From a virus (taxonomy: Duplodnaviria > Caudoviricetes), in IMG/VR virus record IMGVR_UViG_2883843030_000002, positions 1 to 64,000 of that record: a DNA stretch of 64,000 nt. The stretch is one strand, 5' to 3'. Positions 1,566-22,400 of the stretch are shown piece after piece (position 1 is the stretch's first letter; the number at the start of each line of letters is the position of its first letter). The notes below the pieces were generated by a model that did not search any database, had not been told where the DNA came from, and worked only from the letters and a program-made list of their open reading frames with translations. Position numbers and translations under genes: made by a program.

Positions 1566-1577
1566 TACGCTATCTTA

Positions 1578-2357: not shown

Positions 2358-2936
2358 CTATGCTTTGTTCTTTTCGGGAATGAAGCAAAAATCTGCGTAA
2401 ATCTCGATGAATTGTTTGGCTGCATACTCAGCCAGCTTTTCGCTTTTGAAGGCGAGCCGAGAGCCGTAGTTCGAGTACGAAGAAGCGAAATACGCGTCCG
2501 AGTAGACGAGACCGCCACTCGCGTACGCATAGTAGTTCGACCGACCGACGCACCGGCTCTTCTCTTCGTCAGATAGAGCTTCGTAGTCTTCCTTGCTGAT
2601 AAGGTCGTACCACCCGTACCAACGGCGCTCGCCATCGACAAACTGAGGTTCCCAGCCCTCATTTAGGGCGGCGGTGATGATGCGAAGTTGGAAATATGCT
2701 TTGATGTCGGGCATTAGATCGCGGAGGCTCCATTCCACGGCACGATAGGCTTTTACTGCTTCGTGTTCTTCGCCAAGTTCTTCGATGGCATCTTTGATGG
2801 TTTTCACACGATCTGTTACGGGGAGTATCTCAGAGAGCTTTTCTCCTATCTGTTCTTTGATGGCCTTTCGACCGACGGCGTTACAGTTGCCATATACAGC
2901 TACTAACGTCTCTTTGTTTAATTGGATTGCTTCCAT
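2358..2936 (-). CDS. Small phage protein that is a remote DGR target (contains VR2)
   Basis: Encodes SRCVGRSNYYAYASGGLVYSDAYFASSYSNYGSRLAF from a TR-homologous segment; start taken at MEAIQL. Confidence 0.9.
   Translation of the reverse strand: MEAIQLNKETLVAVYGNCNAVGRKAIKEQIGEKLSEILPVTDRVKTIKDAIEELGEEHEAVKAYRAVEWSLRDLMPDIKAYFQLRIITAALNEGWEPQFVDGERRWYGWYDLISKEDYEALSDEEKSRCVGRSNYYAYASGGLVYSDAYFASSYSNYGSRLAFKSEKLAEYAAKQFIEIYADFCFIPEKNKA
2454..2557 (-). repeat. DGR variable repeat VR2
   Basis: Aligns to TR 19194-19303 with 11 substitutions, all at TR adenines, plus one 6-nt in-frame deletion. Confidence 0.93.
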
Positions 2937-2962
2937 TTGTTTGAGTTTTTTGATTAGAATGT

Positions 2963-3042
2963 ATCTTATTTGCACTTGCAAATTTAATCGAAAATAATCA
3001 TTTACGCAAGTTTTGGGGCGATTATTTTAATCATATACGCAA
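2963..3042 (-). promoter_or_regulatory. Early promoter/operator cassette, copy 1
   Basis: -7 box TAAATTTG (2979-2986); two TAATCAT.TA.GCAA repeats at 2995 and 3028; GCAAATAAGAT box. Confidence 0.8.
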
Positions 3043-3084
3043 TATTTATTAGTGTAATAATCATTGTTACTATGTTTTGCCTAA

Positions 3085-3297
3085 TTAGAGGGCACCGCAT
3101 ACTGCGATATAATATTCGGCATCTATGGCATCGCAATTTAGCAGTTGAACTCCGATGTGTTTGCAGAGTTTGCTAATAAGCTCTATTCGATTCTGTTTTC
3201 GATTCTCAGACGCAATGCAAGATGAGGTTCTGTAAATCTCGTCAGCTAAAGTGCTGAATACAATTTGAGCCTGGTCGGTTGACATTTCTATTTTCAT
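3085..3297 (-). CDS. Hypothetical protein
   Basis: ORF in operon. Confidence 0.6.
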   Translation of the reverse strand: MKIEMSTDQAQIVFSTLADEIYRTSSCIASENRKQNRIELISKLCKHIGVQLLNCDAIDAEYYIAVCGAL

Positions 3298-3305
3298 GTT
3301 TATTG

Positions 3306-4304
3306 CTAACTAATTAAGGATTCATACTCATTCTTCCTATTGGCTTGTTCGCACCCTTGTTTGCCATATGCAGGCGTAATATTGGCGTAGCAATACACGC
3401 AGCTATGCCCGCAGGTATTATATGTTCCAATATCTTTGCTGAGGACGCAGCCACATGCAGCTCTTTGTCCGGGGTCTTTGGGAAAGGATTCTGGAGTACC
3501 GAACATATCCGAGTAGCCGAGCCATGACATTAGCCTTTCGTCGTCTTTGAATAGTCGCGTCATTAGTAAGGGGTCAACGCAACGATTCTTTGCTACGCCA
3601 AACTTACTCAAGTCTATTTGTTCTCCGCAAGTTGCGAGTTCATATCCAAGCGATTCATTAATTTTGGATAATTCAGTTGCAAAATCACACATGCTTTTTT
3701 GTGTGAAATCTACATACTTTATTCCGCCTTGGTTGAGATTGTATTGCACTTTACGATAGCTTGTGATGTCCGCGAAGCTGAATACTAGTTTCTCACAATA
3801 GTCTTTGAGTTCTCGACCGATCTTCTCTATTCTTTCAAGATGGTCTGTTATCTGAAGATTGTCTGTCAGAATAACTGGGTCATATCTCCATATGACAGAA
3901 CCAACGCCTAAAACATCAACGAGGCGTTTGAATGTATCGATGCGCTGGTTTAGCGGTGGAATGCTCGGTTCAAACCCTTCGGCTGCATAATCATTGAGAG
4001 TAAACTGGATATAGCAGTTTACATTGCGACTGGATAGCTCTAGCATTCGGTCTATGAGTGCTATGGGGTTTTTAGACCAGAACACTACCACTCTAGTATT
4101 CTGAAACGAAACAAAAGATTGCTTTTGGTTAAATGGATTTACCCACGAGCAATATCCTTTCTTGAGTCGGTTGAAGAACCAATCCAAATGAAATGCTGGA
4201 ATGTCAGTGCTCCGACTTGCCGATATGACGATGGGCGCGATAGCATCCACACACTCTCCAGTTTCGCGAATAATGCTTACCTTTTCGTGCTTATACATTT
4301 TCAT
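3306..4304 (-). CDS. DUF1848-family protein (radical-SAM / spore-photoproduct-lyase-like, C-terminal CxxxCxxC)
   Basis: ISASRSTDIPAF, FWSKNP, WRYDP, DIGTYNTCGHSCVYCYAN motifs. Confidence 0.85.
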   Translation of the reverse strand: MKMYKHEKVSIIRETGECVDAIAPIVISASRSTDIPAFHLDWFFNRLKKGYCSWVNPFNQKQSFVSFQNTRVVVFWSKNPIALIDRMLELSSRNVNCYIQFTLNDYAAEGFEPSIPPLNQRIDTFKRLVDVLGVGSVIWRYDPVILTDNLQITDHLERIEKIGRELKDYCEKLVFSFADITSYRKVQYNLNQGGIKYVDFTQKSMCDFATELSKINESLGYELATCGEQIDLSKFGVAKNRCVDPLLMTRLFKDDERLMSWLGYSDMFGTPESFPKDPGQRAACGCVLSKDIGTYNTCGHSCVYCYANITPAYGKQGCEQANRKNEYESLIS

Positions 4305-4642
4305 TTCACTTCAACAATATATTCAATTCCGGAGCCCAGATATTCACGCAATGAAGTTTTGTCGACTGCATAATACTCTGCACATTGTCCATACCGCTTT
4401 ACTACAAATTTCTTTAAGATATCGTGGAATGTGAAAGCCCAACCCTGCAAAGGAATGGCGTTGTTAAAGTACGAATTGGAGTTTACTTTGTGAGTAATCC
4501 AATTCTTTTGTGCTCTATTGAGTTTGATGCCGGAATTGATAAGTTCCCTTATTTTATAGACAATGCTGTCCTTGAGGGCATCTATGGGTTTGGTATCCCA
4601 TGGAACAAATTTAAATACAGTCGCTGTCATCATTGGAACCAA
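4301..4642 (-). CDS. Hypothetical protein
   Basis: Overlapping stop/start packing; exact start uncertain. Confidence 0.7.
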   Translation of the reverse strand: MVPMMTATVFKFVPWDTKPIDALKDSIVYKIRELINSGIKLNRAQKNWITHKVNSNSYFNNAIPLQGWAFTFHDILKKFVVKRYGQCAEYYAVDKTSLREYLGSGIEYIVEVK

Positions 4643-4968
4643 TATAATCTGACGAAGTCGTTATTGGGATCGCTGTTTTCAAACCATGTTTCCAAGCTCG
4701 ATATAAGTTCTTCTACCGAAAACTCTGCTTCGCCCTCTTCGAGGTATCTGGCGTATCTCTCTCGACATTTCTTGACCTTCTTAATCGCTTGCTCAAATTC
4801 GTCTTTAGGTATTTCGAGTGTGTCTGCGCTCTCGATATACTCGCTGTTGCACCACAATCCGGGGCATAGGTCGTTGAGTAAGCGGTTTATACAATCTTGT
4901 TGGTATGACATGAAGCCATGATCATATTTTACGTCGTACTTGGTAGCGACGTGGCATCTGTACCCCAT
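4630..4968 (-). CDS. Hypothetical protein
   Basis: ORF in operon. Confidence 0.75.
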   Translation of the reverse strand: MGYRCHVATKYDVKYDHGFMSYQQDCINRLLNDLCPGLWCNSEYIESADTLEIPKDEFEQAIKKVKKCRERYARYLEEGEAEFSVEELISSLETWFENSDPNNDFVRLYWFQ

Positions 4969-4970
4969 AT

Positions 4971-5327
4971 TTATTCAGTTTTTGTTTCGTTGATTATCTC
5001 TTTTTCAATCTCGCAGAGGAATATCTTGAAGTCTTTCTTGTGATGGAGAAAGACCATTTCTATTTGAGCTTGCATTTTAGGAAGTCTCGCGAGCCCCATG
5101 CATTTTAGGAATTCGCTCACTAAAAACTGTTGGTCGTTACGGTTAGTAACTCCAATTCCGGAGCAAAGATCATTGATAGACTGTCTCGCCCGTCTTTTGA
5201 GCTTTTCTTGGTTCGGCCAATAGGTGCCGTCCGTTTGGCTCCTTGGATAACCGCATGCTTCGCCAAGATATTCACCGGTTATGGCATCCAATGTACCGTC
5301 GAGCATCATTTCTGCTATTTCCCCCAT
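4971..5327 (-). CDS. Hypothetical protein (MGEIAEMMLDG N-terminus common in phages)
   Basis: Start taken at MGEIAEM directly after the upstream stop. Confidence 0.75.
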   Translation of the reverse strand: MGEIAEMMLDGTLDAITGEYLGEACGYPRSQTDGTYWPNQEKLKRRARQSINDLCSGIGVTNRNDQQFLVSEFLKCMGLARLPKMQAQIEMVFLHHKKDFKIFLCEIEKEIINETKTE

Positions 5328-5328
5328 T

Positions 5329-5979
5329 TTATATTTGTCTTTTGAATTTGCGTTTGCAGGCAGAAGGGATGATGACATCTATCGGCCCATGCACCATTTC
5401 TTTAATTGAATCTACGCTTTTTTCATCGCCACGTTCTGTGGCGATATTTATGGCATCCGCTATTGCTCGCTCTTTGTCAAGGGCACTGTAACCGAATACT
5501 TCCTTCCGTCTTTTGTCGGAGAATTCTGGGAAAATGGCGGTTCCACAGCCGTAATATCCAAAGGTGGAGATGCGATAAAATGGCTCATAACATCTGCGAA
5601 AGACTTTCCCATCAACTATCAAGTATTCGCGACTTGTGAGTTTTAGATATGCGACATATTCCGCCTTTGTTGTGTACTCTCCGTAATTGGGGTATTTTCT
5701 GAATACGCTTTCCCAAGGGATGGCATCGAATTCATATTCTTCGGAGCGTTTGCCGTTATAGAATGAGATTCTAGCTTCTTTGTATAACTGGTTCTTGAAC
5801 AACCGGACCTCCATCATCCGCTCCCTGAGGCTATGGACAATAAACGCAACCGGGGCCTCGGTTGCAGATGCCTCTCTTATTCTAACCTTGACCTTTTCTT
5901 TATGTCCGATTGGTCGCGGTTTTCGGCATCTTGGAGGAACCTCATTCTCATGGAATTCAATCTCAATCTCAATTACCAT
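5329..5979 (-). CDS. Hypothetical protein
   Basis: ORF in operon. Confidence 0.75.
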   Translation of the reverse strand: MVIEIEIEFHENEVPPRCRKPRPIGHKEKVKVRIREASATEAPVAFIVHSLRERMMEVRLFKNQLYKEARISFYNGKRSEEYEFDAIPWESVFRKYPNYGEYTTKAEYVAYLKLTSREYLIVDGKVFRRCYEPFYRISTFGYYGCGTAIFPEFSDKRRKEVFGYSALDKERAIADAINIATERGDEKSVDSIKEMVHGPIDVIIPSACKRKFKRQI

Positions 5980-6412
5980 CGGTCTCTGATTTTATAAGAT
6001 TGTCGAAGAAGTCTTTAATTTCAGTGTATAGAACTTCTTTCGGTGTGCTAATTGCCCTCCTACCCTCGAAGAATCTGCCGCCAATCTTGAAGCAGAATGG
6101 GTATAGGTCGTACTGGTAGCATTCTCCGACAAAGAAGGCGTTATGCAACATTCTTGCCGGCGGAAGACAATCCATAACATCGTAGTAGCGTTCTTCGTCT
6201 ATTTCCTCGAATGGAGCTTTGTTGAGCATTGCTCGATGCTCGTTGACGAGTTCTGCGACTCTTTCAGGGGTTACGGCTATGAGATTAGGATTATCTTTGG
6301 CCTTTTTCAGAGCTTCGAGAGTTTCGCCTCCATAGTCGCTGTGGATGTCATCACTCATGCTTGTAACGACTGTTCCTTCAAAGGGGATAGTGGGGTCTAT
6401 GATATATTTCAT
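5969..6412 (-). CDS. Hypothetical protein, DUF1419-like C-terminus
   Basis: EIDEERYYDVMDCLPP...FFVGE motif. Confidence 0.6.
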   Translation of the reverse strand: MKYIIDPTIPFEGTVVTSMSDDIHSDYGGETLEALKKAKDNPNLIAVTPERVAELVNEHRAMLNKAPFEEIDEERYYDVMDCLPPARMLHNAFFVGECYQYDLYPFCFKIGGRFFEGRRAISTPKEVLYTEIKDFFDNLIKSETDGN

Positions 6413-6612
6413 ATTGCGTTTTCGTAAATTGTGGGTTCTGATGATACATTATATATAAAGGAGCCACAGCGCACGAGAAGAGCATTTTTACCATAGTAGA
6501 GTTTTCTCATACCAGTTACACTTCCGGACGCGCTGAAGTTGGGAAAGCGGTGTATATCCACGCGCTCTCCCTCTTCTATACAGATTCGTTTTACTCTTGG
6601 TGGCCGTGCCAT
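6409..6612 (-). CDS. Hypothetical protein
   Basis: ATGA overlap with the next gene. Confidence 0.7.
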   Translation of the reverse strand: MARPPRVKRICIEEGERVDIHRFPNFSASGSVTGMRKLYYGKNALLVRCGSFIYNVSSEPTIYENAI

Positions 6613-7775
6613 AGCTTCTGTCCTAATTTTGACACTTCACTGACATCGTAAGTTCCGTTGGGACCACCGAGAATGACGCGGGCTGCACTATAGCATGCAT
6701 TCTGCGTAAGCTGACGTTGCCAGCATGCATTGTTTCTAGACCATCGCCAGGCTTCTTTCTTGAGCAGGCTGATGACCTCTGGTGCCGGCTTTCCTTCGTG
6801 GAAGATTTGCAGGCGGTCTTCTTCGTAGTTCTTGACGATAGTGCAAGAATACATTTCGAACACTTCGTTTTCGCGGTTCGCGTTCTCGGTTTGCTTGGCA
6901 AGGGTTTCCTCTGCCTTCTCTACGAGTTTCCAGAACTTGTGGCGATCAGTGAATATCGGTTTGCCACCGGCGCTTTTGAACTTCGCATTGAGTTCTTTGA
7001 TGAACTCGCCGGCTCTGCGGAGCATTTCGACTTTACCATTCTTCGCAAGGGTTTCCATTCGGTTGTAGAGGTTCGACACAAAAAGTGTTCGGTTATACGG
7101 CTCATTACGGGTGTCAATCCCGAAGATACTTCTCGCAGTATCCATTATTCGTGCCTTTACCGCTTGCCACTCTTCCTCTTCTCTTTGGTCTTGTGGCTTC
7201 GCGGCTTCCATGCGACGCTGGACTCCTTTGAAGAATCGGTCACGCCACTCTCGGAAGTTTCTGTAGGCTGTGTCGTAGGCGTCGCTGGCACTTTTGTTTC
7301 TTTTAGTCGGGAACTTCGCCGGCCCGACAATCATTGCGCTCATAACACGAGAGTGCTTGCTGAACAGCGTGGCAACCCATTCGCGGTATTTCTCGATGTA
7401 GGCTTCGTGTTCTGCCTCGGGGAGTTCCTTCAAGTCTTCCACAATTTCTTTCTCATAGTCACGAATGTACTGGACCGCCCTGTCTTCGGGAGTATGGCTT
7501 GTTCCGGAGAACGCTCTCACACCTGCATCGTAGAGATTTTCGAGGCTGACTTCGTAAAGCCAACTTGTGACTGCCCATTCTTTGAGATTGTAGTTGGAAA
7601 TTTCGATTTCTTCGCCTGAAGGTGATGTAACTTTGTGGGCGTAGTTACAATACATGAATCCTTGGTGCTTGGCAATTGCCCGATAGTCGAAAGTGTAGTC
7701 GGGAGAGTCTGGCTGATTGACCGGGCGAACTGTCTTTGCTCTATGGCAGTTCTTGATTGATAAAATTGTTTCCAT
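6591..7775 (-). CDS. Conserved mobile-element protein resembling polyvalent-protein/DUF3560-type modules
   Basis: SAMIVGPAKFP and RLQIFHEGKP...WRWS...WQRQLT motifs. Confidence 0.6.
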   Translation of the reverse strand: METILSIKNCHRAKTVRPVNQPDSPDYTFDYRAIAKHQGFMYCNYAHKVTSPSGEEIEISNYNLKEWAVTSWLYEVSLENLYDAGVRAFSGTSHTPEDRAVQYIRDYEKEIVEDLKELPEAEHEAYIEKYREWVATLFSKHSRVMSAMIVGPAKFPTKRNKSASDAYDTAYRNFREWRDRFFKGVQRRMEAAKPQDQREEEEWQAVKARIMDTARSIFGIDTRNEPYNRTLFVSNLYNRMETLAKNGKVEMLRRAGEFIKELNAKFKSAGGKPIFTDRHKFWKLVEKAEETLAKQTENANRENEVFEMYSCTIVKNYEEDRLQIFHEGKPAPEVISLLKKEAWRWSRNNACWQRQLTQNACYSAARVILGGPNGTYDVSEVSKLGQKLWHGHQE

Positions 7776-7812
7776 TAGGTATCTTATTTGCGTTTGTCTA
7801 TCTTATTTGCAT

Positions 7813-8247
7813 TTAAGCGAGTTTGTAAGTATTGATTTGGCCTAACCAGCGGCCTAATTGTTGAGCAACGATTTTCTCGCTGATTGCCACGCTGTACGTG
7901 AGCCATTTATCGTTGCCCCATTGCACATTTATATGGTAGTCGCAGTCGCCTCTTCCGAAGTGAGAGCCGTCAGTATTCAAGGCTTTTTCGTAGTGAATCT
8001 CAAATCTCCTTCCGGCAGAATCAATGATTACTACGCATGGTTCGGCACTGGGGAGTTTAGATTTATCTATTTTGAAAGAGCCTATTCCCAATAATTGGGA
8101 TAACGTGTCTTTGAATGTTTCATAGGCGTGTTTCGCGTTTTCCTGACGCTTCGAGCGTTGTCTTTTTTGGGCTTCTTTTTCTCGGACGTCTTTGTCGATG
8201 ACTTCCTTGCGAGAGGCATTAGCGATGCTTAGTAGGTCTTGGCTCAT
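7813..8247 (-). CDS. Hypothetical protein
   Basis: ORF in operon. Confidence 0.7.
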   Translation of the reverse strand: MSQDLLSIANASRKEVIDKDVREKEAQKRQRSKRQENAKHAYETFKDTLSQLLGIGSFKIDKSKLPSAEPCVVIIDSAGRRFEIHYEKALNTDGSHFGRGDCDYHINVQWGNDKWLTYSVAISEKIVAQQLGRWLGQINTYKLA

Positions 8248-8248
8248 A

Positions 8249-8524
8249 TCACGCGTTTTCTTTTACATCTTCAATATCGAAGAGTACGGGAACTTCCCCG
8301 AAAAATTCCTCAGTAATTTCTTTCATCGCTTTTTCGTTTGTCGATATTGCGATGAAGATGAGTGGGGCCCAACCGGGAACTACTGTCTTGCTCTTGTCTC
8401 CTTCTCCGGCAAATATAACTCTCCGGTCTTTGGTGGTTTGGCCGAGATCATTCTGATGATCGGCTACATCGTTGGCTTCCTGTCGGCTTTCGAGTCCTAC
8501 GATGATTTTCTTGATGTACTTCAT
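8249..8524 (-). CDS. Hypothetical protein
   Basis: ORF in operon. Confidence 0.7.
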   Translation of the reverse strand: MKYIKKIIVGLESRQEANDVADHQNDLGQTTKDRRVIFAGEGDKSKTVVPGWAPLIFIAISTNEKAMKEITEEFFGEVPVLFDIEDVKENA

Positions 8525-8535
8525 ATTAATATTGT

Positions 8536-9072
8536 TTAAGCGTTATACTTTGCTACGAGTGCGGCGAGAGCCGAGCGATAATCGTGGCTTCCGAGTTCAG
8601 CGAGATCGATGAGCTCTTTTTCGCAAGCATCGAAGTTCAGGCTCTGTTCTTTAGAGGGTTCCTCGTAGAGCTTTCGGAGGCCTTTGCTTCCGTCGAGATA
8701 TGTGATGAGAACTTTTTGCCCTTTGTTCGTCTTTACCAATTCGTATTTGGCGACTCCGCGGGCCTTGTCTTCAGCCGTTATAGAACGTCTGATTCGCTGT
8801 GCTTCCGTGAGAGCTTTTTCTATTTCGCATTCTTCGGTTTTTGGCTCGGTGTAGTAGAATTCCAAGGTTGCGTTCCAGACGTCGCACATTGCTTGGTGAA
8901 GTTCCTGGTCTGCGAGAGGGCGGATTGTGGAGAAGTAACTTCTCATTTGATTGTCGAACTTTGCATCGTAGCCGTTGTTTTCGTACCAGACCTGCTCCAT
9001 GTCGAAGTTGGATTTTTTCTTCACACTTTTCAGGATTTCTATCGCTTTCTTTATGGTTTCTCTTGTATTCAT
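8536..9072 (-). CDS. Hypothetical protein, first gene after early promoter copy 2
   Basis: ATG ~30 nt downstream of the cassette. Confidence 0.8.
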   Translation of the reverse strand: MNTRETIKKAIEILKSVKKKSNFDMEQVWYENNGYDAKFDNQMRSYFSTIRPLADQELHQAMCDVWNATLEFYYTEPKTEECEIEKALTEAQRIRRSITAEDKARGVAKYELVKTNKGQKVLITYLDGSKGLRKLYEEPSKEQSLNFDACEKELIDLAELGSHDYRSALAALVAKYNA

Positions 9073-9098
9073 ATTGGTGGTCTTTTTTGATGTTTTTT

Positions 9099-9178
9099 AT
9101 CTCATTTGCATATACAAAGATAATCAAAAATAATCATATATGCAAGTTTTAGGGGTGTTATTTTAATCATATCTGCAA
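9099..9178 (-). promoter_or_regulatory. Early promoter/operator cassette, copy 2
   Basis: -7 box TATCTTTG (9115-9122); repeats at 9131 and 9164. Confidence 0.85.
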
Positions 9179-9213
9179 TTTATTTTGTCAGATATAATCA
9201 ATATGATAATATT

Positions 9214-9239
9214 AAAGGCAACCCAAGCGGATTGCCTTT
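9214..9239. terminator. Intrinsic terminator at the end of the lysis operon
   Basis: AAAGGCAA...TTGCCTTT stem. Confidence 0.7.
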
Positions 9240-9256
9240 TTACAATGAAAAAGAGT

Positions 9257-9772
9257 TTAGAAAGTGATTATGTTGTAGGAAATTCCTATTCCAATATACG
9301 GCTGAACTCTATTCGGTATCATGCCGCAACCGAGTTGGATTCCGATTCCCCACTTTTTATCTTTGGTGGGCGACCTGATATAGACGGTCTCGGTGCGTTT
9401 GAAAATCTCAATGCTATCCAGAGCCGGACGATAACCGCTCACGTAGGCTCTGAAAGTGCTGTCTTCGTATATCTTTTGGGTAATAGGAATTACGACTTCT
9501 ACACTATCCTTCGGGGACTCGTAACTCATCGAATCCACGATCGTTTCAATCGTAGCTGTCGGCGGACTGGGTTGTCTTGCGGCTGGCAGTCTTTCGGTGA
9601 CATACCGAAGTATCACGCTATCAACGGGGACTGGCTGGCGATACGGGATTGTGTCGTAGATTGTGATTACCTTTTCTTCTGTATCTATGGGACCGGCTCT
9701 GGTCCAGAGCATCACATTAGCGAGAACGGATGCAAGCAGCAAGATTAAGAGAATTGTTATTGCCTTTTTCAT
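9257..9772 (-). CDS. Lysis-cassette membrane protein (spanin-like candidate)
   Basis: N-terminal TM helix, C-terminal beta-hairpin YIGIGISYN; directly after the endolysin. Confidence 0.6.
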   Translation of the reverse strand: MKKAITILLILLLASVLANVMLWTRAGPIDTEEKVITIYDTIPYRQPVPVDSVILRYVTERLPAARQPSPPTATIETIVDSMSYESPKDSVEVVIPITQKIYEDSTFRAYVSGYRPALDSIEIFKRTETVYIRSPTKDKKWGIGIQLGCGMIPNRVQPYIGIGISYNIITF

Positions 9773-9783
9773 ACTGTTGGAAT

Positions 9784-10392
9784 TTAGAGACTCTTGTATT
9801 CGGTGAGAGCATCAAATGACGGGCAAGCCTTGTTCGCAAACTCTCTATGACCGTGAATTGTTGACTTGGGATATTTCGCCTTTAACCCTTTGAGAAGTTT
9901 GACGAGAGCTGTTCTCTGCGCCGGCGTGCGTGTATCTTTGGGAACATGGCTACCATCGGCGACTTCACCACCAATATAGCATACCCCGATGGAGTTTGAA
10001 TTGTGGCCCACGCAGTGTGCGCCAATTTTGGATTCTGCGCGGCCGGCATGAACGCTGCCGTCTCGATATATAACGTAGTGATACCCTATATCTGAGAATC
10101 CGCGAGCAAGATGCCACTCTCTGATTTGAGCCGTCGTGAAGTCCTTACCTTCAGGAGTCGCCGAGCAATGCACGATGAGTTCTGTGATATTCCGGGAATT
10201 TGTGGTAATAATGCCTAATTTTGCCCATGTGTTGGTGCCGACAACACCATCGACAGTAAGTTTGTTGGCTTTCTGAAATGCCCTGACAGCTTCGTCCGTA
10301 ATCGGGCCGAAGATGCCATCTGCAATGAGATTGAGCCTTGTTTGCAGGGTCTTTACATCATCGCCCCTGCTTCCGAGTCTGAGTATAGTCAT
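9784..10392 (-). CDS. Endolysin: PG-binding domain plus T7-lysozyme-type N-acetylmuramoyl-L-alanine amidase
   Basis: LRLGSRGDDVK..DGIFGP..DGVVG PG-binding repeat; IVHCSAT, GYHY, GHRE, KACPSF zinc-amidase motifs. Confidence 0.93.
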   Translation of the reverse strand: MTILRLGSRGDDVKTLQTRLNLIADGIFGPITDEAVRAFQKANKLTVDGVVGTNTWAKLGIITTNSRNITELIVHCSATPEGKDFTTAQIREWHLARGFSDIGYHYVIYRDGSVHAGRAESKIGAHCVGHNSNSIGVCYIGGEVADGSHVPKDTRTPAQRTALVKLLKGLKAKYPKSTIHGHREFANKACPSFDALTEYKSL

Positions 10393-10403
10393 TTTATCGT
10401 TAT

Positions 10404-10949: not shown

Positions 10950-10958
10950 TCTGTTTGT

Positions 10959-12221: not shown

Positions 12222-12258
12222 TATTGTGATATTTTTGATTGATTTTCGTTTACTTGCT

Positions 12259-12906: not shown

Positions 12907-12915
12907 ACTATTGTG

Positions 12916-13557: not shown

Positions 13558-13609
13558 TTGTCAGTACGGTGGCTGCGCCAACACTTTGCATGCCGACGCA
13601 GCCTTTGTT

Positions 13610-14098: not shown

Positions 14099-14105
14099 AT
14101 TGATA

Positions 14106-14339: not shown

Positions 14340-14386
14340 TTTTTATTTGATATCTTATTTGCATTCAGGTGGGTTAAACCTGGTTC

Positions 14387-14749
14387 TTAATAGTATATTT
14401 CAGGGAATCCTTGGTTTGGGTCGGATTTGGGCGGTTGCCCTCCGCAGTACCATCCCTTTTGCCTTGTCAGCGACGGATGTAATATATTTGGATTGTCGCC
14501 TTCGGGATATTTGCTATGTCCATCTGACTCCAAACCAAAGGCAAGATTTATTCCGGCATCGCGATTACTACCCATACCATTCATTTCGGCAAGGAGTTCG
14601 TAATAGTCCTTCCCTCCGAATTTCCCATATCCTTCGTAGCAATTCTCTTCGTATGAAGAGCCATGGTTATCGGTCATATAGACTGTTTTATATTCTCCAG
14701 CCACAATTCTCTCGCCGGTATCCTGGCAGCACCATGAAAATTGTCCCAT
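14387..14749 (-). CDS. Hypothetical protein
   Basis: MGQFSW...YEGYGKFGGKDYYELLA phage motif. Confidence 0.75.
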   Translation of the reverse strand: MGQFSWCCQDTGERIVAGEYKTVYMTDNHGSSYEENCYEGYGKFGGKDYYELLAEMNGMGSNRDAGINLAFGLESDGHSKYPEGDNPNILHPSLTRQKGWYCGGQPPKSDPNQGFPEIYY

Positions 14750-14767
14750 ACTTTTTATTTATTTGAT

Positions 14768-15106
14768 TTAGTATCCGAGAACTTTCTTTGCGTTGGCCTC
14801 GATTTCTGCGAGAGACTGCTCAGGAAATTGCTGGTCGAGGATTTCGCCGGCTCTCTTGATAAAGTATTTGAACCTTAACTCAACTTCAGCTTTCTGTTCC
14901 TCATCGTTCATGTTCGCATACTCTTGAGTATTCTCGTTGTCAGGGCAGAATCCACCAAGTTCAAGCGCGCCGGTCATTTCGGGGCCAGTCGCAAACTCGC
15001 AATAACAGTGTTCGGCGAATGATAGTCCAGCTTCTTTCGTTTCTTCGTTGTAGAAGTCCCAGAGTTCCTTGACGTATGGTTCGTAGATGTCGAGTTCTTT
15101 TTTCAT
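14768..15106 (-). CDS. Hypothetical acidic protein, first gene after promoter copy 3
   Basis: Start at MKKELDI; the longer track start lies inside the promoter. Confidence 0.75.
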   Translation of the reverse strand: MKKELDIYEPYVKELWDFYNEETKEAGLSFAEHCYCEFATGPEMTGALELGGFCPDNENTQEYANMNDEEQKAEVELRFKYFIKRAGEILDQQFPEQSLAEIEANAKKVLGY

Positions 15107-15134
15107 TTCTTTGTGGTAGTTTTGGATTATTTTT

Positions 15135-15214
15135 ATCTTATTTGCATACGCAAAGATAATCAAAAATAATCATTTATGCAAGTTTTAGAGTGATTATTTT
15201 AATCATATCTGCAA
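15135..15214 (-). promoter_or_regulatory. Early promoter/operator cassette, copy 3
   Basis: TATCTTTG at 15151-15158; repeats at 15167 and 15200. Confidence 0.85.
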
Positions 15215-15305
15215 ATTATCGTCATTATGATTAGAAATGACTGTGCGCTGAAATGTATTCTGCACCTCTTTTTGCATATTTGATTAAATGGACTGGCAAA
15301 AAATA

Positions 15306-15331
15306 GACCCCACCATTATATTGGCAGGGTC
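15306..15331 (-). terminator. Terminator after higA
   Basis: GACCC..GGGTC stem followed by TATTTTTT on the minus strand. Confidence 0.6.
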
Positions 15332-15360
15332 AGAATTAGTTATATGAAATTACCGGAGTT

Positions 15361-15726
15361 TTATACTCCAAGTACGATAGACGGAGATATATTCAGTTTC
15401 TGGCTGATTGCGCGCGCTTGCCGGAGGGTAGGCTCTTTTTCTCCTGAAAGATATGCACATATTTTCGTTGGAGCTATACCGAGAAGTTTGGATAGGGACG
15501 CTTGTGTAAGCCCCATTTCCTGCATTCTTATTTTGATGACATCGACTAACGATGGCTCTCCAATTGAAAAATGTGAATCAGAATAATCCGCCACCAATCC
15601 AGACAGCAACTCCAACTCCATGCTGTGCGGGTCTGTCAGAGGCGTGTCGTCTTTTACATACGGCAAGAGTTCCTCTACTCTTTGGAGGGCCCAGCGATAT
15701 TGAGCTTCATTCTCTATCTTTGTCAT
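15361..15726 (-). CDS. higA: HigA antitoxin (HTH-XRE)
   Basis: KIENEAQYRWAL..ELELLSGLVADY; C-terminal HTH GLTQASLSKLLG..LSGEKEPTL. Confidence 0.9.
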   Translation of the reverse strand: MTKIENEAQYRWALQRVEELLPYVKDDTPLTDPHSMELELLSGLVADYSDSHFSIGEPSLVDVIKIRMQEMGLTQASLSKLLGIAPTKICAYLSGEKEPTLRQARAISQKLNISPSIVLGV

Positions 15727-15736
15727 ATATAAAATA

Positions 15737-16030
15737 TTAGATGGTTGAACAATCTATTTTATCATATTCTGCATGAGTACCGATAAATCGGATGTAAACC
15801 CACTTTATTGTAAATTTGATAACAACGACAAGTCGGTGGTGGTTGCCTTTGATGTTGAATACATAGTGCTGGTTTCCCACGTTATCAACGCTATTGAAGT
15901 CTCTTTTGACATCGGCGAAATTTTCCCAACGGGCAGCCTTGACAATTTTCAGCCACTCTTGTAATGGTGTCTTGGTGTCAGGGTGCCTGGAGATATATTC
16001 TTTCAGAGGCTCTTCCGTGATAACTCTCAT
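15737..16030 (-). CDS. higB: HigB mRNA interferase toxin
   Basis: MRVI..W...W.NFADVK.DF.SVD..VFNIKGNHHRLVV..IRFIGTHAEYDKID; upstream of the antitoxin. Confidence 0.92.
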   Translation of the reverse strand: MRVITEEPLKEYISRHPDTKTPLQEWLKIVKAARWENFADVKRDFNSVDNVGNQHYVFNIKGNHHRLVVVIKFTIKWVYIRFIGTHAEYDKIDCSTI

Positions 16031-16054
16031 ATCATTGTAATCATTTGTGTTATG

Positions 16055-16117
16055 CAAAGTTACAAATAAATAATCATATACGCAAATTAAGGGAGGATTA
16101 TTTAATCATAACTGCAA
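16055..16117 (-). promoter_or_regulatory. higBA promoter, a divergent copy (4) of the early cassette
   Basis: TAACTTTG at 16055-16062; TAATCATATACGCAA at 16071 and TAATCATAACTGCAA at 16103. Confidence 0.75.
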
Positions 16118-16133
16118 GATTTACAAATTAAAA

Positions 16134-16155
16134 GGAGCGCCATTACTGACGCTCC
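16134..16155 (-). terminator. Terminator at the end of the DGR/tail operon
   Basis: GGAGCG..CGCTCC stem followed by TTTT on the minus strand. Confidence 0.65.
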
Positions 16156-16180
16156 CGAACATTGAACGCTCTTTCGACGC

Positions 16181-16672
16181 TCACGCGCCTGAGGAACTGC
16201 AAATATGAAGTAGTACAAATAAATTCACATAGATGTCGACGAGAATACCGGCTTCGAGCCAGAAGACAAATTTGCGCCTGAGCACAACCCCGATGATAAC
16301 ACCCAAAATAGTTGCATAGGGTATTCCTGATGCAATTATAATCCAAGTCAGTGCAGACAAACCGAGAATTACGACCGCTCCGGTATGGACTTTTCCTACG
16401 AGTTCATCTTTGAACGCTGGGGAGGCGGCTACGAAAACAATGGAGCCACAAATCAGGAAAGCGAGATACTGGATGTTTTCCGGAGTAACTCGTAAGAGTG
16501 GCACCCATGCCAATGCCGCGCAGAGTGCAATCACGGCGGGGAAAAGGAATTTCGATTCTGTGTGGTAGTATGTCACGCTGATAGAGGTTGGTAGTCCTCT
16601 TGAGATAACATATGCAATCAGGTATATGACGATGATTGCGAAAGAAATAATTGCGAGTATTGTTTCAGTCAT
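16181..16672 (-). CDS. Multi-pass membrane protein
   Basis: Five or more hydrophobic segments; start at MTETIL. Confidence 0.75.
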   Translation of the reverse strand: MTETILAIISFAIIVIYLIAYVISRGLPTSISVTYYHTESKFLFPAVIALCAALAWVPLLRVTPENIQYLAFLICGSIVFVAASPAFKDELVGKVHTGAVVILGLSALTWIIIASGIPYATILGVIIGVVLRRKFVFWLEAGILVDIYVNLFVLLHICSSSGA

Positions 16673-16710
16673 AACGATTGGTGTTAAGGCAGCCTGCGGC
16701 CGCTGTGATT

Positions 16711-17028
16711 TTAATAAAGGAGTTTGATGGCAATGTCGTACCAAGTGTAGTAGTTTGCGAGGAACGCAACAACCGATCCGCCGAGACAGCCCACCTGGTC
16801 CCATGCAAGGTCCCAAATACAGAAATGGTTTCCCTTCTTCTTGCTATCCTTTATCTCTTTCCAAATACCGAAGGCAAGAGCCACGGCATAGGCGATGCCA
16901 GCCGCTATCCATGCTGATGGAAAGTGCATGAATGATACAAGCACACCAATGATGGTGGCGATAACGAATTCACAGAAGACGTGGAGCTTCTTATCGGCAC
17001 CAGTCTTGTCATTACAAATCTTTGTCAT
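16711..17028 (-). CDS. Small membrane protein (DK.LH / KE..D / D..WD motif, VanZ/YfiM-like)
   Basis: ADKKLH, WKEIKD, WDLAWDQVG; start at MTKICND. Confidence 0.65.
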   Translation of the reverse strand: MTKICNDKTGADKKLHVFCEFVIATIIGVLVSFMHFPSAWIAAGIAYAVALAFGIWKEIKDSKKKGNHFCIWDLAWDQVGCLGGSVVAFLANYYTWYDIAIKLLY

Positions 17029-17045
17029 ATAGGCGTATTTAGTAT

Positions 17046-17543
17046 TTATTGACTTTCCGAGTATTCCTCCATGCTGCCGAGAGCCTGGATAGCCATCCAT
17101 TCCTCTTTACTAACTTGCGCACGATGGGCGGCGATACCTGCTGACACCGCTCCGAGTTCTTCAAAACTAGTGAATGAATGTATCTGCGGAGTACCGTCAG
17201 GCTTGCTTCCAAGATTTACCTCTACCGGGAACTGCATAATGCCTCCCTGGATAGCAACGAGCATACCAGTTAGGTCTGTTTTCAGAGCTTCGGAGTATTC
17301 CACGGTCATGCCGCCCCATTGGTAGCCGTAACGAAGTTTAAAGTCGCTCTCAGCTTTGATCTCTGCTACAATGTCAGCCTTGATTTCGTCAAGTGTCGGC
17401 CGATGGTCGTAGGTCTGATACCAATTGTAGCCGGTTTCGTCGTCTTCGGAGTCTTTGCCGAAACCATAGAAAACAGCCCACTTCTTTGTGCCTATTTTCT
17501 CCAGGCCATTCTGCGGGCCTGACGCGCCGTATCTTTTTTCCAT
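17046..17543 (-). CDS. Tail-fibre-associated protein (DUF4376-like)
   Basis: HRPTLDEIKADI..YGYQWGG motif; downstream of the tail-fibre/DGR locus. Confidence 0.55.
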   Translation of the reverse strand: MEKRYGASGPQNGLEKIGTKKWAVFYGFGKDSEDDETGYNWYQTYDHRPTLDEIKADIVAEIKAESDFKLRYGYQWGGMTVEYSEALKTDLTGMLVAIQGGIMQFPVEVNLGSKPDGTPQIHSFTSFEELGAVSAGIAAHRAQVSKEEWMAIQALGSMEEYSESQ

Positions 17544-17553
17544 ATTAGAAGTA

Positions 17554-19032
17554 TTATGAGAATGAATAAATTCTTAGTGCGCCGGTGCCCTGCTTCTGCA
17601 CGATTGTTGTCTCTACCGTACCAGGGAGAAGCCCACGTTCTTTCATCTGGTCGAGTAAAGACTTCATTTCTTCGCTGTCTGTGAAGAATTTATACTCTGT
17701 TACATCACCTACAAAGTGGAACAGCACGACATATCGGGATTCTCCCCAACGTGTCTTGATGTCTTTCTCGTAGTCCAGAAGTTCGATAGGTCTGTTGGTT
17801 ATCAAGCCAAGCGACATGTGCTGGCAATTGAACCGCTTCTTGCCGTCTGCTGGAGTATATTTCAACCCTAATTCGCTGAATTTTGCCATATGTTGTCCTG
17901 TTAATTTGAAGTATAGATGTTTGCAATCGGCATGGCAGGCCATGCCCTTGAATGAGCCTATGATCTGCTGTCGCCGCTTTCGGGATTTTACTCGATGTAA
18001 TGCTCTTGCCGCTTTAACTTTTATTCTTTTTCGGATGAGCGAATAGATTTCTCCAGTTTCTGCATCATAGAATGTTCTATAGCCGAGAAAATCTACCCCC
18101 TCTGTAATGGGGCGTATAGCAAAAGAAACTTTAATAGTCAGTTTGAGGTTTTTTGCCTCAGCAACAAGGACTTCATATATTGCCCAGGCTTCTTTCTTAT
18201 CATGTGCAAAGAATACGATGTCATCGCAATATCTGTAATAATGAAATCGAATAATCTTGTCGCCCTTACCAATTATTAACCCCTCGCCGGAATATACCGG
18301 AGCCTCAAGCTCTTCGAGATAATGGCATCTGACAACGCCACACATTTTTTTATCGAGCTTGCTGAGGAATAGATTAGCAAAGCACTGTGATGAGCGTAGC
18401 CCTTTAGATAGCCCTTTTGGCATCACGCAAATAAGATTGTCAATCATCGGCAGTACCAGCGGGTCGCTGATATATTCTCTAGCGCACTCCATCATTAAGA
18501 TTTGGTCTATCGAATCATAGAACCCCTGGAAATCACTCTGTCCGAAGAACATCATATTCTCGATGTCGGCCCGCAGGTCGTTCACCATTACATGATGGAG
18601 CCAGTGCATACCACGCCCTTTGATGCTTGCGGCAGTATTGTGGATGAGCGTAGGATATACATGGCTTTCAACGGGCCGCATAATTGCCTGTATCCCTATA
18701 CGCTTGAATACGGGTGGTGCATGAACAATCCTTGCTTTTGGACCGTCCGTAACCTTCATTTCCCGTAGTTCTTCCCGGTAGATTCTAAAAGACCCATCGC
18801 CAAGTTGTTTTTCGAGGAGATTAAGAAACTCTGACTTTTTGGGCCAAAAGTGTTCACGCTGATGTTTGTTTTCAAGATGACTTACTAAGTAATCGAAACT
18901 TTCGGACAGATTATTTGGGTCGATAATCTCGCCGATGAGGTTATCGAGAGGGAATACGTCTGAGTTCGCCCCGATTATCTGCCGGGACGGTAACTCCACA
19001 TCCATGAACGGTATTTCTACAATCTTATCCAT
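17554..19032 (-). CDS. DGR reverse transcriptase with an extra C-terminal domain
   Basis: GPKARIV, ASIKGRG, SDFQGFYDSI, GLSKGLRSSQCFANL, YRYCDD, GVDFLGY; adjacent to TR; start at MDKIVE. Confidence 0.95.
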   Translation of the reverse strand: MDKIVEIPFMDVELPSRQIIGANSDVFPLDNLIGEIIDPNNLSESFDYLVSHLENKHQREHFWPKKSEFLNLLEKQLGDGSFRIYREELREMKVTDGPKARIVHAPPVFKRIGIQAIMRPVESHVYPTLIHNTAASIKGRGMHWLHHVMVNDLRADIENMMFFGQSDFQGFYDSIDQILMMECAREYISDPLVLPMIDNLICVMPKGLSKGLRSSQCFANLFLSKLDKKMCGVVRCHYLEELEAPVYSGEGLIIGKGDKIIRFHYYRYCDDIVFFAHDKKEAWAIYEVLVAEAKNLKLTIKVSFAIRPITEGVDFLGYRTFYDAETGEIYSLIRKRIKVKAARALHRVKSRKRRQQIIGSFKGMACHADCKHLYFKLTGQHMAKFSELGLKYTPADGKKRFNCQHMSLGLITNRPIELLDYEKDIKTRWGESRYVVLFHFVGDVTEYKFFTDSEEMKSLLDQMKERGLLPGTVETTIVQKQGTGALRIYSFS

Positions 19033-19193
19033 TATTAAAGCCTTCAGGACTCCTGTGATGTTTCCGCTTTCCAGACTTTCGTCTGCTGTTGCCGAGGCTC
19101 GTATCCCTCGCAGAAATGCAATGACGGACACGCCGCCGAGCAGGGTCTTACGATTCTGTTGACGGTGAGGGAGCACCGTTTTATCCTTAATGT

Positions 19194-19303
19194 GAGCCGA
19201 GAGCTGTTGTTCGTGTTCGAGTTCGAAGAAGCGTTATTCGCGTTCGAGTAGACGAGACCGCCATTCGCGTTCGCATTGTTGTTCGACCGACCGACGCACC
19301 GGC
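19194..19303 (-). repeat. DGR template repeat (TR); IMH*-like end ACATTAA at 19187-19193 region
   Basis: 110 bp with 12 AAC/AAT codons in the target frame; matches VR1 and VR2 except at adenines. Confidence 0.96.
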
Positions 19304-19381
19304 TTTGGGATACTCTACCTTTTTTGAAAGTTTCTTTTCCTTGTTATCTCTTGGGGTTATGAGTTTGACAATATGCAATGG

Positions 19382-19417
19382 GCTTCGGCCTCGGGCTTTG
19401 TTGCCCGAAACCGAAGC
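19382..19417 (-). other. GC-rich hairpin downstream of the VR1 gene (DGR homing hairpin candidate)
   Basis: GCTTCGG-CC-TCGGGC-TTTGTT-GCCCGA-AA-CCGAAGC. Confidence 0.65.
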
Positions 19418-19428
19418 GACGCTTTTCG

Positions 19429-22400
19429 TTATGCCGCGCTCTCCGCAGATTCAACTATTTCGAAATTTCCGCTGAAGGCGAGCCGAGAGCTGACGCTCGT
19501 GCTCGAGCTCGAAGAAGCGTAATACGCGCTCGAGAAGACGAGACCGCCATTCGCGTTCGCACTGTAGTACGACCGACCGACGCACCGGCCCCTATCATTA
19601 GTATAATAGTATCCGTCAGAATAGTTCTTATTCCACTTGCTGTTGTCGGTAGTCACTCGCGAGGCGATTATGTCGCAGTATCTGCCAAATTTAACACGAC
19701 CGATGCAGTATCCAGAGGTGTTTAAGCCTTGGATAACGCTTTCCTCTTTCGTCTGATAGTTGCGGACAACATGGTACTTTGCATCAAGCGGGTATGATGA
19801 TGTCGCAATACGCTTGTCTTTCTTGTACTGAGCGAATGAGGGCACATTGGCGGCAATGAAGTCCATGACCTCCCAGTTGCAGCCGACAAAGTTCTGTATA
19901 CCGAATATAATGTTGCCGATGTTTGAACCGGAATATTTTCTTGTAACCTTTCCATAGCTGTTGAAATTATTCTGTCCGGTAACGTACTGTGAGCCACAAC
20001 CATATCCAGCGTAAGCCTGAATGTCGCGGGTTCCAGTCAACGCCATCACAAGGTTGGCGATGTCCTTGCTTATCTCATAGCTGATACCGTGGAAACCCTT
20101 GCCGCGCATTTCGATAAGATTTAGTATGTCGGCATAGGTATAGTTCATAGTAGAGGTGGGAACAGAAGTATTCGTGATGTTGCCCTCGTTGTCGTACTTC
20201 CAATCGGCATTTGTTACCGATGTGCCGGTACCTGTGCGAGTTTTTACGCCACTGATTGAACGAGGTCGCATAAGAGCGTCAACACTCATGCCGTAGATGC
20301 CGACGAAACGCATAGGCACCCATACCCAGTCTGGTTCGATGGCCTCGATAGCGGCACTGTCAACTGCAATAGCTTCAAGGTTATCAAAGCCAGTAGGCGA
20401 TGTGAACACAATCTTCTTGGCACCGCTTGGCACATCGCAGAACACATAATCACCGATTGAGAAATCGAATAGTGAATGACTTACGGCCATATTGAATGTA
20501 CCTACCACTTTGTCGTTTTCGTCTACGAACACCGCGCCAATTTGTGCGTTGTTGAGCCCGGGCCAGCGAACCTGCTTCATGCCTTCAACTTCGAGTTCAT
20601 AGACATTCATGTTGGCGTTATCGACTATCTCGTAGTCTTCGCCCTTTGAGAGTGCCGTCCCGTTATTGGATGTATAGACACAAGAGTACGCCTTCACAAG
20701 AATATCAGCCAGTTTCTTTCGATTGGTTTTCATTGCCGTGGAGAGTGGCAGAGAGGCGAAACTGCAAGCAAACAGATATTTTTTCTGATTCTTGAAGTCA
20801 TTAACGCCTTTATACCAATATAGGCCGAAACCGAGCATCACATCAAAGCCCTCGCCTGCTTGGTCTGTCGGATCATACTCGGTGCCGTTTGCCATCAGAT
20901 TGTAGTTGGTATCCATAATCTGACGTGCGAGCAGCTTGGACTCTCGGGAATCGTAGGTGCATCGGTACGGGTGGGCTGCATCGAATATCTTGACAAAGTG
21001 ACCGCTTGGCTCATAGTCTTCCTTACTTGTGCCGTTATCGAGATTCGTGATATTCTGACAGTCGTCGTCGGTATCATCGAAACGGACGCACGAATACTGC
21101 GAGTTAAAAAGGGTTAATTGCGGGAAGTATGCTGCAAGGCTGTTAGGCTTGGTTTTGTCAAGTTCGGTGTCATCAATGAGGTCTTCCATAATCCAACGAC
21201 CCGTTACGCCAGAACACTGATTGCTTTCCTCATAGGCACTCCCCGTGGGGTCGAGACCTATAGCACCGCTTGCGCGGAGAGATTTTAGGATAGATGAGGG
21301 AGCCGTAATATTCACGTCCGGCAAACGGAGGTAACGGAGGTTAGACGAACCTACGATGCCGCTGATGAGTGTGTACGGGTCAACATTCGGACAGCCGGCT
21401 AGCATGAGGCGGTTAACACTTGACATGCCTGCGATTGTCAAACCTCCGGGATATGTGAGATTCGGCAGGTTGATAAAGTTTAACTCCGTCATAGTTGCTG
21501 GCAACTCCAAAGTGCTTATCGGAGAGGTTTCGGCAGTGCTGATGTTTGTCAGTTCCGAACCTGATGCAAGCACACTTTCCAGTCGAGGACATTTTGCGGC
21601 GTTGATAGATGCCACTTCAGTAGTTCTTACATCGAGGTGAGTGAGGAACGGTAGGTCGCCGAGATTCATGTTGGTGAGGAATCCGGTGTTGCCTGGAGAT
21701 AGTCTCCAGGACTGACGGTGGTTGGTCGAGCCGATAACGATTTTCTCTGCCAGTTTCATCTGCGAGAACTGGAAGTTCGGGTCCAAGGAGATTTGCGAGA
21801 GGTCAATTTCGCTCATCTGGTCGGCCTGATAGATATAGAGAAGAATATTATCGCCGTGCTGGAAGTTGGTGAAAGTGCCCTGCTCGCCGGCCTTGAGGTA
21901 CATGCCCTGCGTTACGTTGCCACCATCGTTACCAATACCAAAGTAGCCGGACTTGGCGGCACGGAAACGAATTACAGCTCCTGTCTTGGCTCCGATACGA
22001 CCACCAAGTACGTGGCTTGCATCCTTGAAGTCACCGGTTTGGTAATAACCATCGCGGATGCGCCAACGTTGCTCAATAAATCGGGGGAGCGACTGACGGC
22101 CGGAACCATGGAGTGCGTAATAATAGATATCTGTGTATAGCTCAGAATACTTGATGTATTTGCGCTCACAGTCGAACGTACAAACTACCTTGGGCCAGAA
22201 AGCAATTCGCTTCTGCACGAAGTAATAGTTCGCGCCTTTAGGCGAGAATGGGCCAGCACCGATACCGTCGACCTCAGGAAGATTACGCATGAGGTCCACA
22301 ACACCGGGAAGAGTGAGGGTACCGCCCATAGCATTTGCAACCATTTCCTGATTGTCGCAGCGACGGAGATTGTTCCATAAGATAGAGCCACGGCCGGCGT

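Follow-up and report, generated by a model that had tools for sequence, protein, structure and literature searches.

The diversity-generating retroelement (DGR) of Bordetella phage BPP-1 acts on a single target, Mtd, which forms the trimeric tail-fiber tip with a C-type lectin (CLec) fold, and it requires the accessory protein Avd. The subject of this analysis is a DGR in a 64,000-nt stretch of DNA (IMG/VR virus record IMGVR_UViG_2883843030_000002, positions 1 to 64,000; hereafter the window), which is a prophage of a temperate Bacteroidales phage in a rodent-gut genome, the habitat of the host being taken from the records of the sequencing runs that hold the phage. In this element, one template repeat (TR) and one reverse transcriptase (RT) are paired with two variable repeats (VRs): VR1, in an adjacent gene for a 2729-aa protein, and VR2, in a remote gene for a 192-aa protein. 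Features common to this DGR and that of BPP-1 are a TR upstream of the RT gene, mutagenesis specific to adenines, a VR at the 3' end of the target and, where the VR ends on its 3' side, a GC-rich element. It departs from BPP-1 in having two targets, in lacking a recognizable Avd and in a small target for which no CLec fold was detected. Considering its anatomy together with the signs of its activity, we assign a probability of roughly 0.85 to the reading that this is a functional one-template, two-target DGR of a temperate Bacteroidales phage.

Two-target DGRs of phages have been treated in three papers, which are drawn on here as far as their accessible text goes. Wu et al. (2018; PMC5758913) found many phage DGRs with one adjacent and one non-adjacent target within 50 kb, which were taken to belong to the same prophage; the window shares this pairing of an adjacent with a non-adjacent target, and the accessible text of that survey gives no small-protein family and no non-structural placement. 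Benler et al. (2021; PMC8008677) described a Quimbyvirus DGR with one VR behind the tail-fiber genes and a second VR in a distal, presumably non-structural gene that lies amid methyltransferases and a tRNA ligase, reported CLec domains for the Quimbyvirus targets by HHpred, and proposed a role in phage-host conflict for the distal target, the function of which 'remains to be investigated'. A later report concerned four prophage species of the human gut in which a second, distal VR is found near counter-defense genes (Nature 2025; PMC12629997), and the remote target has been set in 'defense-related' islands in both of these latter papers (PMC8008677; PMC12629997). The accessible text of the 2025 paper names no family for the distal target, which its supplement may do, whereas all of the distal targets examined here belong to one family.

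The window resembles the Quimbyvirus/LoVEphage type of DGR, as published, in having one RT and one TR, two VRs and a distal target outside the structural genes, and LoVEphage encodes a homolog of the 192-aa protein. In PV4-TP1, a 72-kb Phocaeicola phage, the distal target is another homolog and lies in a methylase/tRNA-ligase island; this phage is equated with Quimbyvirus by its matching gene content, as compared with the accessible description of that group. Because the PV4-TP1 island fits the description by Benler et al. and its distal target is homologous to the one in the window, the central idea of a first-pass annotation of this DNA, namely that a phage hypermutates a remote, non-structural protein in addition to a tail protein, has already been published. 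The observation on which that annotation built is real, but its novelty did not stand, as the arrangement is found in all three papers (PMC5758913; PMC8008677; PMC12629997) and, including the homologous small protein, is on record for human-gut Bacteroides phages.

The window phage differs from Quimbyvirus, as that phage is described in the accessible text, in that its RT is a single open reading frame (ORF) instead of three overlapping frames, and in that its remote target shares the strand of the DGR cassette and is located next to xis and int rather than within a methylase island. It is also distinct from the Quimbyvirus type in its rodent-gut host and in the absence of a nucleotide match when window positions 1-20000 were searched against the phage collection. 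What is added here is modest, and comprises a family-level link between remote targets, a tight association of this family with DGRs, the presence of three such systems in one genome, a self-contained gene unit and the non-detection of a CLec fold; these five points are absent from the accessible text of PMC5758913, PMC8008677 and PMC12629997, the supplements of which may hold some of them. They add no new principle, and they sharpen the question about non-structural DGR targets.

Template, variable repeats and reverse transcriptase

All genes between 1.3 and 64 kb of the window are on the minus strand, as are the three repeats. The TR (19194-19303) is 110 nt long, contains 27 adenines and is made up mainly of AAC and AAT codons. 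VR1 (19480-19589) occupies the 3' end of the 2729-aa gene and ends 51 nt before its stop codon, while VR2 (2454-2557) is 104 nt long, lies 16.7 kb from the TR and leaves 96 nt to the stop codon of the 192-aa ORF. Every mismatch to the template falls on a TR adenine, 12 of 12 in VR1 and 11 of 11 in VR2, for which the chance expectations at 24.5% adenine are 5e-8 (0.245^12) and 2e-7, respectively, and the two VRs carry different sets of substitutions. The repeat search thereby bears out the positions, the mismatch counts and the differing substitution sets given in the first-pass annotation; its coordinates for VR2 also imply a length of 104 against 110 nt, although its text left the resulting 6-nt gap unmentioned. 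This gap is an in-frame deletion relative to the TR of one TCGAAC tandem-repeat unit, with seven equivalent placements, and the score of 11 out of 11 for VR2 depends on placing it in this repeat. The 110-nt repeat is present in these three copies only, both within the window (repeat family D3) and within the phage's own genome (G000; 3.49 Mb in 40 contigs).

VR1 and VR2 have in common a GC-rich 3' element, GCTCTCGGCTC, and both read GCTCTCGGCTCGCCTTC where the TR reads GCTCTCGGCTCACATTA, at the place where an initiation of mutagenic homing (IMH) element that differs from the TR would be expected. The three differences between GCTCTCGGCTCGCCTTC and GCTCTCGGCTCACATTA are themselves at TR adenines, and the VR2 of L002, one of two syntenic relatives (L001 and L002) from viral contigs, is TR-like at this place, so the boundary of the IMH cannot be fixed from the sequence.

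RTs of the DGR type carry the motif GxxxSQ and the catalytic motif YxDD. Both are found in the ORF at 17554-19176 (minus strand), as GLRSSQ at residues 258-263 and YCDD at residue 316; this ORF matches phrog_1423 (E 7.6e-65), and its score against Pfam RVT_1, 28.4 bits, is slightly below the cut-off of 29.6. The ORF begins 18 nt after the end of the TR, and the true start of the RT is likely Met49, at ~19032, giving a spacer of ~160 nt after the TR. What speaks against the element is the lack of Avd (PF05635), for which the window has no match and the genome a single one, on contig C22, that is below the cut-off (27.2 versus 33.8 bits); HRDC was not separately searched. Avd is not universal among DGRs, so its absence is compatible with membership of this class. 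The C-terminal 110 residues of the RT (430-539; window 17554-17880) match phrog_19665, which consists of separate 105-aa proteins, and this region could be a fused accessory factor that substitutes for Avd.

By analogy with BPP-1, the RT would copy the TR transcript while misincorporating opposite adenines, and the resulting complementary DNA would take the place of the homologous VR in one or the other target gene, at its 3' end, guided by the common 5' homology and by the GC-rich element common to both VRs.

Diversification of the remote target in nature

Homologs of the 192-aa protein fall into 2331 clusters at 90% identity (E<=0.001), of which the best 120 were examined, including 94 near-identical proteins of 198 aa. 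Among these 94, all 16 of the TR codons that contain adenine correspond to variable columns (1.05-3.07 bits), the 21 TR codons without adenine reach at most 0.49 bits, and the other 161 columns have a mean of 0.06 bits; in addition, adenine-only changes to the TR codon suffice to give 1503 of the 1504 residues in the variable columns. Differences between samples follow the same pattern when contigs of four gut-metagenome runs from four studies (X5, X6, X9 and X15) are compared with window positions 1-20000. For example, a single 11.8-kb contig of X5 has 18 substitutions, 15 of which lie within 2468-2545 and 14 of these 15 at TR-adenine positions, plus six extra letters that restore VR2 to its full length, and a 12.5-kb contig of X6 that spans VR2 has 76 unalignable letters there against 70 in the window. 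The contigs of X9 and X15 break on both sides of VR2; for VR1, 11 of the 12 differences listed in these two runs are at TR-adenine positions. Finally, the small proteins of the relatives L001 and L002 differ almost only inside the VR.

By these three independent lines of sequence comparison (the differences between relatives, the entropy pattern and the differences between samples), VR2 is a live DGR target and not a relic. Polymorphism largely restricted to TR adenines, for which the first-pass annotation had proposed to test VR2, is present both in X5 and in the population of 94 homologs, and its claim that one DGR serves two targets gains from the finding that population entropy and between-sample differences concentrate at TR-adenine positions.

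Several points weigh on the other side. The entropy test presupposes that the TR of the window is also that of the 94 relatives, and one of the 15 between-sample differences in VR2 and one of the 12 in VR1 fall on a TR guanine. Near-identical contigs cover the TR only at 19271-19303, and invariance of the TR across samples is thus not demonstrated; the other contigs over the TR are deep, have 7-18 differences and come from related DGRs, and contigs break at the repeats. The VR spans 39 residues in 98 of the 99 scorable homologs (21 of the 120 were unscored) and 37 in the window protein only, which makes the two-codon deletion in VR2 private to this genome among the homologs scored. Because it is found in no other scored homolog, this copy of VR2 could be impaired by the deletion.

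Taken further, the same deletion could mark VR2 here as a target in decay or without activity, one that has lost retrohoming or function, in which case only VR1 would matter. Such decay would fit the uniqueness of the deletion among the scorable homologs and the fact that the X5 and X6 contigs, from phages that are near-identical in other respects, are free of it. However, the deletion is in frame, slippage is to be expected in the TCGAAC tandem repeat that holds it, the homologies on either side are intact, including the 3' element common to VR1, all 11 substitutions still fall on TR adenines, and the ORF is intact together with the promoter-like cassette and hairpin that flank it (see below). 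We consider decay very improbable.

Four metagenome-derived homologs (P0105, P0106, P0108 and P0118) run from the VR2 gene into the TR/RT region or into the 3' flank of VR1. Chimeric assembly across the repeats is the most likely explanation, with recombination between copies as the alternative.

A recurrent family of remote targets

The 192-aa protein matches phrog_11581 with an E value of 3.8e-40, residues 1-189 aligning to positions 1-196 of the 200 in the profile, and the phrog_11581-like family has 1368 representatives at E<=0.001 in a library of 50% identity, nearly all of them 160-260 aa long. Two further members are encoded in the phage's own genome, on contigs C11 and C8, and each is the remote VR of another DGR-like trio of repeats. 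On C11 (373426-374181 and 410617-410727) the TR and proximal VR are 36 kb from the remote VR and 13 of 13 mismatches are at TR adenines, and on C8 (9103-9223 and 52902-53239) the distance is 44 kb and 13 of 14 mismatches are at TR adenines. Both of these templates are AAC/AAT-rich.

The same layout is found in other phage backgrounds. The PV4-TP1 protein gp58 is a homolog (28% identity, E 5e-10) with its own TR and VR pair 16 kb away, in a three-copy arrangement. In a third group, of five viral records, three copies are present in all three of the records that are at least 64% complete, and the two fragments (38% and 58% complete) have one copy; a fourth group, of four viral records that are 33-56% complete, shows the remote copy only, these being fragments that are silent on the TR. 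Of 200 further genomes from the taxonomic family to which the host belongs, 16 match the TR and 7 show a close pair of repeats plus a copy 13-42 kb away, and in 7 of these 7 the remote copy is inside a full-length homolog of the small protein (45-85% identity). One genome (G063) has two weak TR matches, neither of which is in a gene of this family. In every sufficiently complete record checked, the phrog_11581-like family is, as judged from repeat positions and homology, the remote DGR target. As an aside, one viral contig (L003) holds two copies of the small-protein family 3.7 kb apart, at 5488-5949 and 9189-9632.

The genes around the small-protein gene also recur in kind. In the window, they are DUF1848 and primase upstream and xis and int downstream; in L015, a helicase, a replication initiator, a DnaC-like loader and a methyltransferase; in L012, SbcC, RecT and NinB; and in PV4-TP1, methyltransferases, a tRNA ligase and a resolvase. 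The neighbors thus differ with the background, are always genes of replication, recombination, methylation or lysogeny, and include no conserved partner gene; no gene annotated as structural adjoins the small-protein gene in the annotated stretches of five phage backgrounds. The originally proposed placement of the remote target outside the structural genes holds in the window, and at least four further phage backgrounds have homologs amid genes for replication, recombination or methyltransferases.

Across unrelated Bacteroidales phages, the remote targets would make up one family of ~190-200 aa that is linked to DGRs wherever there is enough sequence to check, is always outside structural modules, and is intensely diversified in rodent-gut and other metagenomes. 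A single genome with three independent two-target DGRs offers a compact test system for this family.

Properties and possible role of the 192-aa protein

The product of the VR2 gene (2358-2936, minus strand) is an acidic protein (isoelectric point 5.0) with a helical N-terminal half and the VR in its C-terminal half. Its Kyte-Doolittle maximum over 19 residues is 0.78 and its N-terminus is not signal-like, in keeping with the earlier statement that it has neither a transmembrane segment nor a signal peptide. The statement that the two targets share no similarity outside the VR also held, as a BLASTP comparison of the 192-aa protein with the last 323 aa of the VR1 protein aligns the VR alone (23 aa, 61%). 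Near-invariant residues in the N-terminal half of the family are R43, T46, D49, A50, L54, G55, N92 and W95.

Searches for a known domain or fold gave no informative match. Pfam gives no family for the 192-aa protein, no family of note for any of the 132 family members scanned and no informative extra domain in ten longer members (238-340 aa), and the best match of the family profile to PDB sequences is an unrelated protein at E 0.039. An AlphaFold2 model of the full-length protein built from 132 sequences has a mean predicted local distance difference test score (pLDDT) of 85.6 and a predicted template modeling score (pTM) of 0.81, with helices at residues 8-92; Foldseek finds for it nothing better than E 6.1 in PDB and uncharacterized gut-virus proteins only in BFVD, and matches in the ESM Atlas are unnamed viral clusters only.

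The first-pass annotation had further proposed to check whether the VR forms an exposed, CLec-like surface, and structure prediction speaks neither for nor against such a surface. The VR is not confidently modeled, with pLDDT values of around 50 or below (49-65 in the full-length model and <50 in a model of residues 83-192, which has no Foldseek match in PDB), and the CLec-type Pfam families FGE-sulfatase, DUF1566 and Lectin_C are absent at E<=0.01 from the 132 family members. These results, like the possibility that the protein is incorporated into the virion, weigh against the overall reading favored here.

From its gene context, the 192-aa protein is most likely not part of the virion. The word 'intracellular' used in the first-pass annotation, by comparison, loses its footing, since it was based on the missing signal peptide, and signal peptides are missing from virion proteins too. 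This bears on the main rival reading, in which the small protein is a virion component, a second, detachable module for receptor binding or adhesion that docks on the tail via its conserved N-terminal half, so that both targets serve adsorption. Such a module would be diversified from the TR that also serves the large protein of the structural block, and would hence have its binding-loop chemistry in common with that protein; the high conservation of the N-terminal half is what would be expected of a docking domain; and receptor binding is the known function of phage DGR targets (BPP-1, as cited in the accessible text of PMC8008677). Against it, five phage backgrounds have the gene amid replication, recombination, methylase or lysogeny genes, with no structural-annotated neighbor in the annotated stretches of those sites; in PV4-TP1, the remote VR is on the strand opposite to the DGR cassette copies; and beyond the VR the small and the large protein have no similarity. 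Longer, fused forms of residues 1-122 were sought and none turned up, a weak pointer in the same direction. We regard a virion-associated second adhesin as unlikely.

The reading favored here, to which we give about even odds, is that the 192-aa protein acts as a variable binder, soluble and cytoplasmic, in conflict between phage and host or between phages. In such a role, the variable surface of the protein would recognize a variable partner, in counter-defense or in the exclusion of other phages. A more tentative generalization, which we consider doubtful at present, is that phrog_11581-like proteins are as a family dedicated, DGR-dependent, soluble intracellular variable binders that temperate phages of Bacteroidales carry in addition to a variable tail protein. 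If this were true, each such phage would hold a hypermutable intracellular recognition module against variable host defense proteins or rival phages, and the scaffold of these variable binders may not be the classical CLec fold.

Transcription unit and gene neighborhood of the VR2 gene

The VR2 gene is preceded by a promoter-like cassette at 2936-3042 (minus strand), with a TAAATTTG box at 2986, which is kept upstream of the homologs in L001 and L002. This is the first of seven copies in the window (2936-3042, 9072-9178, 15108-15214, 16051-16103, 40736-40842, 44878-44984 and 53182-53288). The cassette is ~100 nt long and AT-rich, has two TTGCAnATATGATTA-like half-sites followed by a TAnnTTTG box, and fronts a minus-strand gene in each case; TAnnTTTG is the Bacteroidetes -7 consensus. 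The copy at 44.9 kb precedes RusA/ParB-like genes, the copy at 40.7 kb stands before an operon leading towards the head genes, and the dUTPase and primase genes lie downstream of other copies, so the seven look, by their placement, like a phage-wide set of regulated promoters or operators. A scan with a sigma-70 promoter model and for terminators gave results at the level of shuffled sequence; the sigma-70 model is unfit for Bacteroidetes promoters.

The first-pass annotation had placed the VR2 gene first behind an early promoter cassette. The cassette itself is real, but its specificity for early genes was rejected, since the copies are spread over 2.9-53.3 kb and front varied operons, including the one that runs towards the head genes. 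The cassette is therefore no marker of early genes or of timing, and its presence at the head of other operons, to the disadvantage of the reading favored here, says nothing about when the VR2 gene is expressed.

The stop codon of the VR2 gene is followed, after 18 nt, by a 12-bp, GC-rich hairpin (2310-2340, minus strand), which is terminator-like but without a U tract; as this tract is missing, we only infer that transcription may terminate here. In L001 and L002, a hairpin of unrelated sequence is present at the same place after the VR2-gene homolog. With a cassette of its own and a hairpin that is conserved in position, the VR2 gene looks self-contained and not simply a member of the xis operon. 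The earlier assignment of the VR2 gene to the same unit as xis was thus not borne out, a strong hairpin being located between it and the genes that lead to xis.

This layout is relevant to a second rival reading, in which the small protein is an immunity sensor that is expressed from the prophage in the lysogen and recognizes superinfecting phages, as opposed to countering host defenses. A single gene with its own cassette and hairpin at the prophage end, beside lysogeny genes, is moron-like, one genome has three different prophages that have each retained a gene of this kind, and the accessible text of two papers sets the remote target in 'defense-related' islands (PMC8008677; PMC12629997). 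However, the protein has no effector domain and no conserved neighbor that could act as one, the neighbors being different in each background, and the cassette also fronts operons for replication and DNA metabolism and one towards the head genes, which makes it not obviously lysogen-specific. We judge an immunity sensor improbable, to much the same degree as a second adhesin. For the cytoplasmic variable binder, the layout would mean that the small protein is expressed from a separate unit, with a promoter and a hairpin of its own, next to the lysogeny genes.

Between the VR2 gene and the window start are, on the minus strand, ORFs of unknown function for 164 aa (1799-2293) and 73 aa (1578-1799), and xis (1365-1565), which encodes an excisionase-like HTH_17 protein of 66 aa identified by Pfam. 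Convergent with xis is a tyrosine integrase gene (1-1278, plus strand) with Arm-DNA-bind_5, Phage_int_SAM_5 and Phage_integrase matches (PHROG, Pfam). An ORF on the minus strand at 196-1443 was considered as the integrase and rejected; it has no family match, is antisense to the integrase at 1-1278 and is read as not a gene. Upstream of the VR2 gene are DUF1848, primase, amidase endolysin, dUTPase and helix-turn-helix regulator genes; apart from the matches named here, Pfam gives nothing for the neighbors of the gene.

The large target and other features of the window

The VR1 target (19429-27618, minus strand) encodes 2729 aa, belongs to phrog_14959 and follows head genes, as the genes that precede it match head maturation protease and portal families. 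Its N-terminus has a weak similarity to minor tail proteins, Pfam gives no match for the whole protein, and a PDB sequence search with its last 423 aa gives nothing significant. The protein lies in the structural block and is presumably tail-associated; the name 'tail protein' given to it earlier is a plausible reading of this position and of the weak minor-tail similarity.

Two other features of the window can be noted. A tape-measure-like gene (54905-58450) is ~20 kb upstream of the head genes (28126-33217), with ParB/RusA-like and many small genes between them; this order of tape-measure and head genes is unusual for one prophage, and copies of the promoter-like cassette are common to both regions. 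In addition, a 420-aa gene at 10959-12221 (phrog_1569) draws extra, deeper contigs in X5, X6 and X9 (three of the four runs), and many contig joints skip 84-274 nt around 11744-12154, which suggests that this gene holds a length-variable internal segment that is common to other phages.

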